A DNA stretch of 64,000 nt from the NCBI GenBank assembly GCA_043803745.1, contig JAZDJS010000049.1:1-64000 (forward strand), in the 5' to 3' direction. Position numbers and translations under genes: made by a program. Position 1 is the first letter of the stretch. Each line of letters opens with the position of its first letter. Shown here one piece after another: positions 6,867-11,577 of the stretch. The notes beneath the pieces were generated by a model. The model was not told the origin of the DNA and searched no databases. It saw only the letters and a program-made list of their open reading frames with translations. This stretch comes from an archaeon (GTDB lineage Archaea; SpSt-1190; DYHY01).

Positions 6867-8705
6867 TCAGTCCTTTAAGATGAACTCGCCAATCCTCTTT
6901 CGGGCGGCTTCGCGCGCAGCCTGATGCTTCGCGAGGAACTCGGAAAGCTTGTCAACAAGGAGCTGCTTCATCTCCCCGGTGAGGAGCTTGCCGCTCCGGT
7001 AATTGTCGTGGATTTGCTTGAGCCGCGAATCTGATTCCTCGAAGAAGGTCAGGTATTGGTAGGGGACATCAATGTCCGGGTTCCCGCCGAGTTTCCTGTG
7101 TTCCTCGACTGTCGGCTGCCCCCCGGAGAAAGCATATTTCATTATTTTCGCGCGTATTTCCTTCGGCGAGTCCGTCGTGTAAATCGCGGCGCCCTCGGAA
7201 GAGGACATCTTCCCTCCCTGTTCAAGCCCCGGAAGGAACCTGCAGTGTATTGCGGCGGGCTTTGGATAACCCAGCTTCGGCGCAACATCCCGGGCAACGC
7301 GCCAGTAGGGGTCCTGGTCAATTGCCGCGGGGATTAGGACGGGCACCTCTTTTCCCTCAAGGAAAGACGGGAGGAAACAGGGCGCAGCCTGCATTGCCGG
7401 GAAGAAGACTATGCCGATGTTGCTCTCGTTGGTGAATCCGAATGTTGCCTTGGCTGAGGAGAATGTGACTTTTTTCGAGACTCTTACCGCAAGGGGGTAG
7501 AGCGTCCGCGCATATTCAGTGTCAAGGAAAATCTTCGTTTTCTTCGGGTCAAAGCCAATTGCGATTATGTCAAGTATGTTCTCGTATGCGAGCTTTTTCG
7601 TCTCCTCTAGCGACAGGTCCTTCACAAGGTGCTTTTCGTCATCAGTTATCTCGAAATAGAGGTCGCAGCCGAACTTGTCCTGGAGCCATTTGCAGAAAAA
7701 CCAAGGTATGAGATGCCCGAGGTGCGTCTTGCCTGACGGGCCCCTTCCAGTGTAGAGGGCGAACTTCCCGCCCTTTTCATAGTGGTCCAAGAGGAGGTCA
7801 AGGTCCCGGTGGGAGAAGAAAATCTTCCTCCGGAGGAAATGATGGAGTTCGCCGCCGGTGTGCCTTTTCAGGCGAGCGAGGATTTTTTCGTCGAGGGGGT
7901 TTGTTCCGAACTGCTTGATTAGCTTGGAGTAGTCGACGTCGCCCCTGACTTCCCAGGGGGTCACTGTGAAACTCTCCTTCTTCGCAATCTCCTTGAAATT
8001 CTCGGGTGTCGGGGTCGCTACCAAGAACTCTGAAATTCTCGGCTTTTGCTCCGCCTCTGCAAAAAGGGCGGTCATGTCCTCTAAAGCTGCCTTGACGAAC
8101 TTCTCCGTATCTTCCGTCCCAAAGAACCAGAATATGAAAACGACTTCTTTTGTTTTCGGGGTTATTTTGTCGTAGCTTCCAGGCCCGTTCAGAAGGGAGA
8201 TTAGCACATTTTCACCATCGGAAAGGACGATGTCGTCTTCGACCAGGGTTTTCTTCGCGCCGGAAAGCGTCTCGTACGTAGCGCCCTTTTCGGAAAGGTT
8301 GAACGTCAGTGTGTTGTCTTTATGGGTTGAGATGTCGTGACAGGAAATCATGCATGCACCCTTCATCTCAAGATAGAAAAGCAAATCCTCGAGAAAGGTT
8401 TTTTCTCTTGGCGGGTTTTTTCCTTTGGCAACTGACTCTATTTGGAATTCTATCGGGACGCTTTTTCCGAACTTGGAGAAGAATTCCTTTCCGTGGGCAT
8501 CTGCTTGAGGGAAACTCTCCTTGGCTTCGACCCTTTTTTTCAGGCTTGCTGCAAGCGCTTTCTGGTATTTCTCCGGAACCCGAAGCTTTGTCGAATTGTC
8601 AATCCCCCCGACAAACATCGCTGCAAACTTCAACGAAGGGTATTTCTCCAAAAGCTCGGGCTTGACTGAAATTGAAACCGGAATTTTTGCGTCTTTGAAT
8701 GTCAT
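6867..8705 (-). CDS. trpS: Tryptophanyl-tRNA synthetase (archaeal/eukaryotic type) with N-terminal B3/B4-like domain
   Basis: VTPWEV, YTGRGPS, HLGH, AIDQDPY, KMSSS in the C-terminal ~370 aa; N-terminal ~240 aa resembles free-standing B3/B4 proteins. Confidence 0.93.
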   Translation of the reverse strand: MTFKDAKIPVSISVKPELLEKYPSLKFAAMFVGGIDNSTKLRVPEKYQKALAASLKKRVEAKESFPQADAHGKEFFSKFGKSVPIEFQIESVAKGKNPPREKTFLEDLLFYLEMKGACMISCHDISTHKDNTLTFNLSEKGATYETLSGAKKTLVEDDIVLSDGENVLISLLNGPGSYDKITPKTKEVVFIFWFFGTEDTEKFVKAALEDMTALFAEAEQKPRISEFLVATPTPENFKEIAKKESFTVTPWEVRGDVDYSKLIKQFGTNPLDEKILARLKRHTGGELHHFLRRKIFFSHRDLDLLLDHYEKGGKFALYTGRGPSGKTHLGHLIPWFFCKWLQDKFGCDLYFEITDDEKHLVKDLSLEETKKLAYENILDIIAIGFDPKKTKIFLDTEYARTLYPLAVRVSKKVTFSSAKATFGFTNESNIGIVFFPAMQAAPCFLPSFLEGKEVPVLIPAAIDQDPYWRVARDVAPKLGYPKPAAIHCRFLPGLEQGGKMSSSEGAAIYTTDSPKEIRAKIMKYAFSGGQPTVEEHRKLGGNPDIDVPYQYLTFFEESDSRLKQIHDNYRSGKLLTGEMKQLLVDKLSEFLAKHQAAREAARKRIGEFILKD

Positions 8706-8717
8706 TCCAATTGTTAA

Positions 8718-10028
8718 TCACCCCCGTTTCTTTATATTATCTGCTTTTGTCCGGCGCGTTTTGTCATATGCCGAAAGGTCCAGGAGGCCGTGGCCCGAGA
8801 GGTTGAAGAGGATCGCCCGTTCCCGGCCCCTGTTCTCCCTTGCAAGCCGGATTACCTGTGCGATTGCGTGCGCGCTCTCGGGGGCGGGGATTATCCCTTC
8901 AGCCCGGGTAAAAAGCTCGGCTGCACGGAAAGTCTCCGCTTCCCCGATTGAAACGGCCCGGGCAAAGCCCTCGGAAATTGCCTTCGAAAGGCTTGGGGCA
9001 AGCCCATGGTAGCGGAGGCCGCCGGCGTAGATTTGCGGGGGGATGAATCCCGAACCGAGGGTGTGCATTTTCAGGAGCGGCGTAGTCTTCGCAGAATCCC
9101 CGAAATCGTATTCGTATTTCCCCTTCCCGACTGAGGCGCATTCCTCCGGCTCGACAGCAACGAAATCGGCTTCGGGGAATTTCCGCATCAGGGGAAACGC
9201 TATTCCCGCGAAATTGCTCCCGCCGCCGATGCAGCCGACAACATGGTCCGGGGCTTCCCCGAACATCCTGAGCTGCTTTTCCGCCTCAAGCCCTATCACC
9301 GACTGGTGTATCATCACGTGATTGAGGACGCTTCCCAGGGCGTATTTCGCGGAGCCCCCGGATTTCGCAACGGTTTCGATTGCCTCGGATATCGCAATCC
9401 CAAGGGAGCCGGGATGTGCCGGGTTTTCCGAAAGCATCTGCCTCCCGAATTCCGTTTTTCCGGATGGTGAGGGAGATATTTCCGCGCCGTAGAGACCCAT
9501 TATGGTTTTCCTCCCGGGCTTTTGGTCATAGCTACACCTTACCATGAAAACCTCGCAGCCGATTCCCGCCCTTGCGCAGGCAAGGGAAAGAGCGGAGCCC
9601 CACTGGCCGGCCCCGGTTTCGGTCACAAGGGTTTTTACTCCCTCATCCCGGGCATAGATTGCCTGGGGTATTGCGGTGTTCACCTTATGGCTTCCTGTAG
9701 CTGTCATGTCCTCCCGCTTGAAGTAAATCCTGCATTTCGTCCTGAGGGCTTCCTCAAGCCCGAGCGCCCGCCTCATCGGCGTTGGCCGATTTATTGAATA
9801 GAGGGCGTCCCTGACCTCCCTGGGGATTTCTATCTTCCGCTTCCTTGAGAACTCGAGAGCAACCGCCGCCTTTGTGAAAAGGGGTAGAAGGGCCTCCGGA
9901 CCAAGGGGCTCCCCGGTCCCCGGATGCTTCGGCGGGGGCGTCCTTATGCTTCCGCAAAAGTTATGGTATTTTTTCGGGATGTTTCTCCTTCCAAGCCTCA
10001 CTTCCAACTGTTCGTTTCCTTTTTTCAT
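8718..10028 (-). CDS. trpB2: Tryptophan synthase beta-like PLP enzyme, TrpB2 type
   Basis: TGSHKVNTAIPQA (PLP Lys), ETGAGQWGSALS, GSLGIAISEA, AGGLRYHG, PAPESAHA, NLSGHGLLD. Confidence 0.93.
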   Translation of the reverse strand: MKKGNEQLEVRLGRRNIPKKYHNFCGSIRTPPPKHPGTGEPLGPEALLPLFTKAAVALEFSRKRKIEIPREVRDALYSINRPTPMRRALGLEEALRTKCRIYFKREDMTATGSHKVNTAIPQAIYARDEGVKTLVTETGAGQWGSALSLACARAGIGCEVFMVRCSYDQKPGRKTIMGLYGAEISPSPSGKTEFGRQMLSENPAHPGSLGIAISEAIETVAKSGGSAKYALGSVLNHVMIHQSVIGLEAEKQLRMFGEAPDHVVGCIGGGSNFAGIAFPLMRKFPEADFVAVEPEECASVGKGKYEYDFGDSAKTTPLLKMHTLGSGFIPPQIYAGGLRYHGLAPSLSKAISEGFARAVSIGEAETFRAAELFTRAEGIIPAPESAHAIAQVIRLARENRGRERAILFNLSGHGLLDLSAYDKTRRTKADNIKKRG

Positions 10029-10492
10029 TCCGTTCTTTCCTCATCTCCTTTTTTTTCGCTCATCCTAAGAATTTCCAAGGAGAATGAGACCGGCTCAAGA
10101 GCCGGATAGATGTGCCTGGTTGTTTTCGGGGGGAAGGTTTTCCCGGAAAGGGCTGCCGAGAAAACAAGCGCCTTTGGGAACTCTTTCGAAGGGTCTGAAA
10201 AGTGAATGACCCTTACTTGGGAATAGGAAACGAGGATTGCCGGGGCGAAAAAGCATCCGAGGGCGCGCAACGCGCCGGCGCGATGGTGCCCGTCGAGGAT
10301 TGCGCGGCTATGGGAGTCTATCAGGACCGGGGGGCCGAAGAAGCCTTTTTCGGAAATCGAGCGGACGAGCTCCCCGAGGGTTTCGGGAATTGTTCGCTCA
10401 TGCGGCTTTAGGTCTGAGATTGGGACTAGGCGAACTTCCCCAAAAACGACCACCACGCGTTTTACTATTTTCAGCCATTGGCTTGCATTCAC
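10025..10492 (-). CDS. ParB/Srx-fold protein resembling SerK/SbnI free-serine kinase (start uncertain)
   Basis: LKPHE, PVLID..S..ILDGHHR, PPKTTRH; stop overlaps trpB2 start (ATGA). Confidence 0.7.
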   Translation of the reverse strand: MNASQWLKIVKRVVVVFGEVRLVPISDLKPHERTIPETLGELVRSISEKGFFGPPVLIDSHSRAILDGHHRAGALRALGCFFAPAILVSYSQVRVIHFSDPSKEFPKALVFSAALSGKTFPPKTTRHIYPALEPVSFSLEILRMSEKKGDEERTE

Positions 10493-10512
10493 TCCCTTGT
10501 TGTTTCATCCTG

Positions 10513-10531
10513 AAAACAAAAACACAGAAAA
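10513..10531 (-). terminator. U-rich tract after leader hairpin (candidate attenuator terminator)
   Basis: Minus strand TTTTCTGTGTTTTTGTTTT immediately after the 9-bp stem AGACTGTCC/GGACAGTTT. Confidence 0.45.
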
Positions 10532-10554
10532 TCCAAACTGTCCGAACCGAGAAA

Positions 10555-10590
10555 CTACCAGCGCCAACGGGACAGTCTGCCTTGGTACAT
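10555..10590 (-). CDS. Putative TrpL-like leader peptide MYQGRLSRWRW*
   Basis: ATG TAC CAA GGC AGA CTG TCC CGT TGG CGC TGG TAG; two Trp codons among the last three; upstream of serK-like/trpB2/trpS. Confidence 0.65.
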   Translation of the reverse strand: MYQGRLSRWRW

Positions 10591-10611
10591 TGAAGGTTAC
10601 TTGCCGGAAAC

Positions 10612-10632
10612 TTCCTTATAACGGTTTTGTCA
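10612..10632 (-). promoter_or_regulatory. BRE/TATA promoter for the leader-trp operon
   Basis: Minus strand ACAAAACCG TTATAAGG, ending ~26 nt upstream of the leader ATG; implies a leaderless start. Confidence 0.55.
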
Positions 10633-10707
10633 CCGGCGGAAGTTTGTTTTCCCAAACGCCCCTTTTTCTCTTGAAAGAGAAAACGTCCCTTGGGGTAAAA
10701 AAGAGAA

Positions 10708-11577
10708 CTAATGCTTGCGGGAAAGGACAAGGAAGGTCCCTGCGCCGAGTATTATCGCTGCTCCGACTGATTGGACAAAATTGAATCCCTCCGCCAGAAT
10801 AAAGTGGCCGAGAAGGGCGGTTAGCACAGGGGTTATCATTGATATCATGGAAAAGGAGGTAACTTCAATGTTCTGTATTGCCTTGGTAATCAGGAGAACA
10901 CATACCACATTAAGGCATCCAGAAAGAACCACGAACGCGGGAGCTTCCAAAAGGAGCCCGCCACCGAGAAAAAGGTGGAGGACGACAAGCACCCCGGCGG
11001 AAAACAGCATCCTTCCCCAGGTTATGACATAGGTGCCAAATTTCCAAAAAGCCTTCTTCTGGTAAACGGTTGAAAAGGCGTAGAAAGCGGCTGCGCAAAG
11101 AATTAGAAAGTCCCCCGCCGCGGGGACGAACGCTTGGCCGCCGGTCGAGAGCAGGTAGATTCCGGAGAGGAACGCAACAATCAGGCCGGCAGTCCTCGGA
11201 CTGATTCGTTCCCTGAGGAGGAAAAATGAGAGAACCGGCACAAAAACAACTGTTGACTTTATGATGAACCCGTAATTTATTGCTGCGGAAACCTTCAAAC
11301 CCCAATTGGAAAATATGTTCCCAAAGGCGATCGCCCCTCCAAGAAACGCGAAGGGCAGGAAGTTCCCCTTGGAAAAAAAGGGCGCTTTTATTTTCCCCAT
11401 TGCCAACAGAGCGTAGAGAGTTGTCAGAACGGCAGACACTATCTGGACGTTGACCGAGTATGCCAAGGGGTTCTCAACCCCCCCGACCTTGAATGCAAGC
11501 TTGTCAATGAAAATGTTGAGCGCCCAGAATACTGAAAAAGCTAGGGAATACACTAGCCCCTTTCTCGAAGCTATCAT
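10708..11577 (-). CDS. DMT/EamA family transporter
   Basis: About 10 TMs, two EamA repeats (FFLLRERIS, GDFLIL.AA, FILAEGF). Confidence 0.85.
   Translation of the reverse strand: MIASRKGLVYSLAFSVFWALNIFIDKLAFKVGGVENPLAYSVNVQIVSAVLTTLYALLAMGKIKAPFFSKGNFLPFAFLGGAIAFGNIFSNWGLKVSAAINYGFIIKSTVVFVPVLSFFLLRERISPRTAGLIVAFLSGIYLLSTGGQAFVPAAGDFLILCAAAFYAFSTVYQKKAFWKFGTYVITWGRMLFSAGVLVVLHLFLGGGLLLEAPAFVVLSGCLNVVCVLLITKAIQNIEVTSFSMISMITPVLTALLGHFILAEGFNFVQSVGAAIILGAGTFLVLSRKH

Follow-up and report, generated by a model that had tools for sequence, protein, structure and literature searches.

The window analysed here is a 64-kb stretch of an archaeal contig (C49 of the source genome G000, an assembly of 1.23 Mb that is 90% complete). 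On its minus strand, an upstream open reading frame (uORF) of 11 codons, MYQGRLSRWRW*, precedes the genes of a SerK-like protein and of TrpB2, a TrpB-like pyridoxal phosphate (PLP) enzyme. We consider it plausible, with about an even chance of being right, that this frame is a functional Trp-sensing leader read by ribosomes from the 5' end of a leaderless mRNA. Predicted Trp-rich leader ORFs are shown below to be conserved upstream of trp genes in two further genera of archaea, g216 and g25, and these are stronger evidence than the source uORF that the phenomenon exists in Archaea. The broader proposition, that Archaea sense tryptophan (Trp) by ribosome-read leader peptides and that the device would have arisen at least three times (in the source genome, in g25 and in g216), is advanced a little more tentatively.

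The uORF, its promoter and the genes behind it

The first-pass annotation of this region had described a TATA box, the uORF with its two terminal Trp codons, a 9-bp stem enclosing these codons, a 19-nt U-rich tract and a possible pairing of TTTTCAG with CTGAAAA; all of these were confirmed from the letters, and every coordinate was correct. The spacer of 215 nt between the upstream EamA gene and the SerK-like gene contains, from 5' to 3', a T-run with a palindrome, a B recognition element (BRE) and TATA box (ACAAAA-CCG-TTATAA, 10630-10616), the uORF, the stem, the U-rich tract and the GTG start codon at 10492 (Table 1). The last four sense codons of the uORF read CGU-UGG-CGC-UGG, the Trp codons occupying 10566-10564 and 10560-10558. 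The stem (10578-10570 with 10543-10535) comprises 9 bp including one G-U pair and reaches 10 bp with 10579/10534; its loop of 26 nt contains both Trp codons and the stop, as well as a weak inner helix of 5 bp. TTTTCAG (10516-10510) is complementary to CTGAAAA (10474-10468).

Genome statistics were obtained from crude gene calls (1203 ORFs, 88% coding). Genome-wide, both AT content and the frequency of TATA-like motifs are highest at -32..-27 relative to start codons, and the profile upstream of start codons has no Shine-Dalgarno peak, which together indicate that leaderless mRNAs are common in the source genome. A TATA-like motif is present at -34..-28 in 118 of the 673 genes with 50 nt or more of upstream spacer. 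Shine-Dalgarno motifs are weak among operon-internal genes too, as just 17% of 312 have GGAG upstream. Among the genes of the source genome are those for TBP and for a beta-CASP protein of 639 aa; the 16S rRNA, sought for its anti-Shine-Dalgarno sequence, was not found in the assembly.

We built a promoter position weight matrix (PWM) from 88 genes with a TATA-like motif; in its profile, TTTWWAAA at -31..-24 is preceded by a BRE-like, A-rich segment at -37..-33. TTATAA begins at -31 of the uORF ATG, and the score for a start at 10590 (6.96) exceeds that of 76% of 341 ATG genes and is matched by only 2.6% of 1940 intergenic ATGs. When the matrix is slid over the spacer (250 positions), its two highest values fall at 10591 (7.96) and 10590 (6.96); at the SerK-like GTG 10492 it scores -3.2, so that this gene shows no promoter signal of its own. 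Judging from the position of these maxima, transcription of SerK-like/TrpB2 most likely sets in at the uORF AUG. The earlier description of the uORF as leaderless is thereby supported, its AUG lying where the TATA geometry of the source genome would place a leaderless start.

Frames of this kind are rare in the source genome. At least two Trp codons are found in 34 of 4686 ATG ORFs of 5-15 codons (0.7%) and in 28 of 1067 intergenic ATG ORFs of 5-30 codons, and sense upstream ORFs with two Trp inside four codons precede 4 genes only. A leaderless-type uORF, defined by a TATA-like motif, an ATG 28-34 nt further on and a stop before the gene, occurs in 7 of 673 upstream regions. MYQGRLSRWRW* is the sole Trp-rich member of these seven, the others being MGII, MQKV, MR, MAAGEG, a Trp-free 16-mer and a 26-mer with one Trp. 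The tract behind the hairpin is uncommon too: windows of 20 nt containing 15 T or more define six tracts in 5' regions genome-wide, the other five of which are found in divergent spacers, on the upstream side of the TATA box, and the pattern T4-N-T5-N-T4 appears in 2 of 596 upstream regions. uORFs with runs of F, T, H, I or L codons were considered as well and set aside, since they precede non-cognate genes (a PMT-like transferase, an inositol monophosphatase and unknowns).

The assignment of TrpB2 from its sequence is secure (592.8 bits with NCBIfam NF009057, whose cut-off is 366; residues 7-432). The gene before it would be a short form of SerK that falls below the standard of the family. 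It matches the free serine kinase 5x0b in the PDB (E 5e-10) in two stretches, and also 1vk1; the match covers the ParB-like N domain and the C-terminal PKTTRH motif, the middle ~110 residues of SerK being absent. With the NCBIfam SerK model NF053625, residues 19-92 align at 43.2 bits against a cut-off of 380. TrpB2 uses O-phosphoserine. Searches for the TrpA, IGPS and TrpE families gave no match in the source genome at its 90% completeness, with 14 of 14 control genomes positive, and this result makes it probable that the SerK-like/TrpB2 pair makes Trp from salvaged indole. Induction of the pair on Trp shortage would make physiological sense.

Trp-rich leader ORFs in other archaea

Leader regions were surveyed across genera on the basis of the 150 matches listed per search. 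TrpB2 is present in 175 of 401 genomes searched, and the sense upstream regions of 80 genus representatives (of 82) were examined. For TrpE, regions upstream of TrpE-containing gene chains were taken from 77 genus representatives of 109 genera, of which 68 were resolved. The survey drops '+' matches that start below position 150 (TrpB2) or 2500 (TrpE) on their contig, and the TrpE contig of G042 was left out.

All seven species of genus g216 keep an ORF of 31-50 codons ending in VVL(F/S)QWW(Q/H)*, located ~190 nt before trpC-trpD-trpE. The N-terminal part of this ORF has diverged in both sequence and length. Two mutually exclusive sets of helices are paired in 100% of 84 and 97.6% of 42 cells, against 17-67% when the helices are slid, and three of the pairs have changed on both sides in a compensatory manner. 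The helices are followed by a U run, and several species carry a Shine-Dalgarno-like GGTGGT site. This arrangement would fit the classic attenuator pattern, for which seven related sequences constitute modest evidence.

In genus g25, four of four species keep an ORF of 45-46 codons ending in (F/I)WAWRWL(T/L)WP* before TrpB2. The leader is ~190 nt long, conserved, GC-rich and structured, and lies between a strong BRE/TATA and TrpB2; its ORF is followed by a U run and by the TrpB2 site GGAGGT. The two indels that the ORF contains are of 3 nt each, and a long helix joins codons 4-9 to the 17 nt past the stop. Codon positions vary at 11, 9 and 13 of 45 codons, so that the third-position bias of a coding signature is absent. 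In the entire genome of G028 there are just two occurrences of the W-x-W-x-W pattern. TrpE was found in just one of the four g25 genomes, a near-lack that g25 shares with the source genome. The g25 leader has no match in Rfam and contains no tRNA, and its peptide is without a match in the protein collection. It has an 11-nt sequence, UUGGCGCUGGU, in common with the source leader, and otherwise no sequence homology to it. A second TGGGCTTGGCGGTGG site, noticed in G043, sits inside a coding gene and was discarded.

Other lineages display different arrangements before TrpB2. In G053, a 95-aa helix-turn-helix (HTH) ORF is located directly upstream of the gene (L072:99-386, minus strand); in genus g269, conserved boxes containing TGTACA surround the TATA box (L155-L157); and in the sister family of g25, palindromic boxes are found at the TATA box. 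The HTH ORF of G053 and the boxes of g269 are likely to represent other TrpB2 controls.

Proposed mechanism and competing explanations

According to the mechanism we propose, the SerK-like/TrpB2 mRNA would start at or one base before A10590, and the uORF would be a 5'-terminal leaderless frame translated by default. Under scarcity of charged tRNA-Trp, a ribosome would pause at the UGG codons, cover uORF codons 4-11 and keep the arm 10579-10570 off 10543-10534. With plentiful Trp it would finish and depart, and the hairpin could form right before the U-rich tract. The hairpin state would lower, and the stalled state raise, the expression of the indole-salvage genes. Two modes of action can be envisaged, between which we see an even choice: premature termination at the U tract, or a folded leader that impedes initiation of SerK-like translation, in the manner of the leaderless poly-Cys small ORFs (sORFs) of mycobacteria. 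We infer the transcription start, the translation of the uORF, the stalling and its effect on termination or initiation from the sequence. Among the features in favour of this mechanism, the uORF has an exact leaderless promoter context, only 2 nt separate the hairpin from a U-rich tract of a very rare kind, and both Trp codons stand by the stop, as they do in the conserved leaders of g216 and g25.

The first-pass annotation had seen in this leader a candidate Trp attenuator. The part of that claim which is supported is the Trp-containing uORF before salvage genes; the part which is not concerns the RNA, for no alternative helix is seen to compete with the hairpin in a defined way, the fold is no better than that of shuffled sequences and Rfam gives no match. 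The leader resembles bacterial TrpL of the E. coli type in being a short ORF with Trp codons before the stop, upstream of Trp genes, in having a hairpin that overlaps the ORF and is followed by a U-rich tract, and in a logic that needs coupled transcription and translation. Unlike TrpL, it is predicted to be leaderless, in an archaeon with TBP/TATA promoters; its Trp codons are not in tandem (W-R-W); it has a single hairpin and not the 1:2/2:3/3:4 set of alternative helices that characterizes TrpL; and it would control the salvage genes SerK-like/TrpB2 and not trpEDCBA. Archaeal termination, moreover, needs no hairpin, as stated in a 2026 review of termination (PMC13675443).

The leaderless poly-Cys sORFs of mycobacteria are the closest mechanistic analogue, being 5'-terminal frames of cognate codons before an operon for that amino acid, as is predicted of the source uORF. 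For them it is proposed that a stalled ribosome remodels the leader and acts on translation (bioRxiv 10.1101/834739). That system differs in being bacterial and in freeing a sequestered ribosome-binding site, whereas the source leader has no convincing duplex of this kind and is U-rich after the hairpin. TrpY of Methanothermobacter and Tar (TK0271) of Thermococcus kodakarensis also confer Trp-responsive control on archaeal Trp genes; these proteins, however, bind DNA at promoters, without a cis leader ORF, and no such operator is seen at the source locus. According to PMC6737238, which adds Tar, little is known of archaeal Trp regulation beyond TrpY. The leaders of g216 and g25 are sense-strand short ORFs ending in clustered Trp and followed by structured RNA and a U run, like the source leader, but their ORFs are longer, are not obviously leaderless and have demonstrated conservation (7/7 and 4/4 species). 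A full-text literature search, which did not extend to the supplementary tables of papers mapping 5' and 3' ends, found no archaeal leader-peptide attenuator. The terms 'attenuation' and 'leader peptide' do not occur in the termination review PMC13675443 or in a review of coupling in Archaea (PMC8116511).

A considerable body of results weighs against a Trp-sensing function of the source uORF, beginning with its conservation. The uORF is known from one sequence only. The annotation had suggested looking for conserved short ORFs with C-terminal Trp codons in related leaders; no orthologous leader was found by searches with the SerK-like and TrpB2 proteins among 40 relatives, and the conserved frames that did come to light, in g216 and g25, belong to unrelated leaders. 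None of three family relatives has TrpB2, and scans of genome contigs and metagenomes returned only distant SerK-like matches (34-56% identity). Among 13 TrpB2 loci of relatives, none has SerK-like or TrpS within 1.5 kb. Synteny was compared with G001-G004. The same-genus genome G001 lacks the stretch that begins inside EamA and reaches almost to the TrpB2 3' end, and it retains, before trpS, a TrpB2 3' remnant of 130 nt that is 74% identical (L146:3755-4505, contig C10). This remnant indicates that the EamA/SerK-like/TrpB2 block is ancestral and was lost as a unit in G001; the spacer is missing there, so the leader was lost too.

The RNA itself, the abundance of comparable frames and the extent of the operon count in the same direction. 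The hairpin is the minimum-energy fold (-16.3 kcal/mol) only if the RNA begins near 10594, and it is equalled or surpassed in stability by 78 of 200 shuffles. Folding energies are no better than those of shuffled sequences (z = +0.17 for 10595-10470, -0.19 for 10594-10528 and +1.04 for 10594-10493). In the 102-nt fold, to which the last of these values belongs, the U tract pairs with a purine-rich stretch before GTG 10492, with no evident tie to stalling. No antiterminator helix competing with the hairpin is evident in the leader, an Rfam cmscan of 10000-11200 with E up to 10 gave two unrelated weak matches, Trp_leader not among them, and a consensus terminator scan of 10300-10900 found no site. 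Runs of at least five T are found after 19.1% of 460 stops and before 17.6% of 596 starts; no general pattern of oligo-U termination can be seen in the source genome, and for this reason we treat the U-rich tract as a putative terminator. Trp-rich short ORFs are not generally enriched before TrpB2 (8/80 on the sense against 4/80 on the antisense strand) or, with ATG starts, before trp operons (1/68 on either strand), and the candidates in G053, genus g47 and genus g68 turned out to be overlapping or out-of-frame readings or to have unclustered Trp. Real Trp leaders amount to ~2/148 surveyed genus-level loci, compared with ~4% for chance Trp-rich short ORFs; on Trp-richness alone, therefore, the odds are against function. 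The supporting features were in part chosen after the fact and are not independent. No leader-like uORF for another amino acid was seen before a cognate gene of the source genome, and an 11-codon ORF with only two Trp codons could be the leftover 5' end of a lost gene. Finally, the uORF had been placed at the head of a serK-like/trpB2/trpS operon. It heads SerK-like/TrpB2 with certainty; trpS, however, probably has a leaderless-type promoter of its own. The PWM at its ATG gives 11.6 (96th percentile of the 341 ATG genes), and G001 carries TTAATAAG at equal distance from its trpS ATG. As this promoter would lie inside the trpB2 3' end, the uORF could reach trpS solely by read-through.

Much of this evidence bears on the possibility that only the promoter is real, with a 5' leader of ~98 nt in which the AUG, the Trp codons, the stem and the U stretch are coincidental or left over from a displaced gene. 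We regard such a coincidence as a serious if somewhat doubtful explanation. It agrees with a folding stability no greater than that of shuffles, with the finding of no orthologous leader among the genomes searched, with the Trp-rich short ORFs that the antisense control strands yield at 4/80 and 1/68, and with the artefactual overlapping frames of the similar-looking G053 and g47 cases; the candidate was also picked from a very large scan, in which rare coincidences are expected. What it accounts for poorly is that features which are rare in this genome (7/673, 0.7% and 2/596) meet at its one Trp-related locus, and that the Trp codons are placed at the C-terminal end beside the stop, as in g216 and g25.

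It is unlikely, in our view, that the uORF is translated but constitutive, acting as a ribosome entry point or a general brake, with Trp control exerted by a DNA-binding regulator. The dominance of leaderless initiation in the source genome, where Shine-Dalgarno motifs are weak even inside operons, would suit such a role, and the known archaeal Trp regulators TrpY and Tar are proteins, as given in PMC6737238; HTH genes or palindromic boxes also stand beside TrpB2 in other lineages. Yet neither a regulator gene nor a repeat resembling an operator is evident from the TATA box to the gene, the sole palindrome of the spacer looks like a terminator (see below), and the Trp identity of the codons would be left unexplained. 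Least probable is that the U-rich tract serves as a weak promoter of a leaderless SerK-like mRNA starting at GTG 10492, TTATAA and the uORF then belonging to a cryptic or independent tiny transcript. Although the tract occupies -40..-21 of this GTG, roughly the position of promoters in the source genome, the matrix gives -3.2 there as against 7-8 at 10590/10591, real TATA boxes here contain A (TTATAA, ATATAAA) and are not T-only runs, and the other five T-rich tracts lie upstream, not downstream, of the TATA box.

Leader-peptide attenuation is the textbook proof of ribosome-RNA polymerase communication in bacteria. Sensing by leader peptides is thus already known there, and the novelty of a Trp-sensing uORF in the source genome, if it is real, would lie in its occurrence in Archaea and in its minimal leaderless form. 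Stalled ribosomes would then set gene expression in the third domain, and the source uORF would be the most minimal known form of an archaeal Trp leader. If the device did arise in all three lineages, this would amount to direct genomic evidence for coupling, or for stalling-dependent mRNA remodelling, in archaeal gene regulation. A working archaeal Trp leader would also offer a simple, natural reporter for coupling, whether by intrinsic or FttA/aCPSF1-type termination or by translation. Genome-reduced archaea that live on salvaged indole would gain an extra regulatory layer. With the conserved leaders of g216 and g25 at hand, the question can be tested directly.

Feature coordinates and neighbouring elements

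Table 1. Features of the source locus (positions in the window) and of the conserved leaders in genera g216 and g25
Feature	Position	Strand	Basis or remark
EamA-family transporter gene	10708..11577	-	Pfam EamA, 91.6 bits; same-strand upstream neighbour
20-nt palindrome TTTTCTCTT-TC-AAGAGAAAA, T/A runs on both flanks	10665..10684		24 nt past EamA stop
Predicted promoter: A-rich BRE-like ACAAAA (10630-10625) and TATA box TTATAA (10621-10616)	10616..10631	-	promoter PWM
11-codon uORF MYQGRLSRWRW*	10555..10590	-	ATG 10590 to TAG 10555
Hairpin	10534..10579	-	5' arm 10579-10570 (uORF codons 4-7), 3' arm 10543-10534
U-rich tract UUUUCUGUGUUUUUGUUUU, 19 nt	10513..10531	-	2 nt past hairpin, 21 nt before SerK-like start
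SerK-like gene, 155 aa, GTG start	10025..10492	-	PDB and NCBIfam matches
TrpB2 (TrpB-like PLP enzyme)	8718..10028	-	4-nt overlap with SerK-like stop
Promoter-like box AATATAAA inside trpB2 3' end	8731..8738	-	-33..-26 of trpS ATG
Tryptophanyl-tRNA synthetase (trpS), ATG 8705	6867..8705	-	NCBIfam NF008927
g216 leader ORF	L233:5557-5652 and ~190 nt downstream; also L238-L243	+	conservation in 7/7 species
g25 leader ORF	L016:2863-3003; also L041, L042, L043	-	conservation in 4/4 species

The palindrome of the spacer has an identical 22-nt copy elsewhere in the source genome (G000:C44:5373-5394), ~20 nt past the stop of a phosphoesterase gene. Since it recurs behind the stop of an unrelated gene, we rejected it as an operator; it is likely to be a candidate bidirectional terminator-like element of the source genome.

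A SerK-like gene is also present in the family relative G003 (L004:1474-2917), where it is paired with a gene for a 345-aa PALP (PLP enzyme). The tryptophanyl-tRNA synthetase of the source genome matches NF008927 with 530.7 bits over residues 243-611. Its N-terminal extension of 240 aa (7986-8705) matches B3_4 weakly, with 23.4 bits and thus less than the gathering score, and a PDB search with the extension found no relative; the enzyme of G001 starts at the catalytic domain and is without the extension.

Aragorn reported 40 tRNAs in the source genome and no tRNA-Trp; the gene may contain an intron, or lie in the 10% of the genome that the assembly lacks, and so have escaped the call. Beside a tRNA-like sequence at L002:1150-1500 (G000:C44), several direct repeats are found whose unit ends in the reverse complement of a tRNA 3' end (GTGGGGCGAGAGG...). 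These repeats look like stacked remnants of integration sites.

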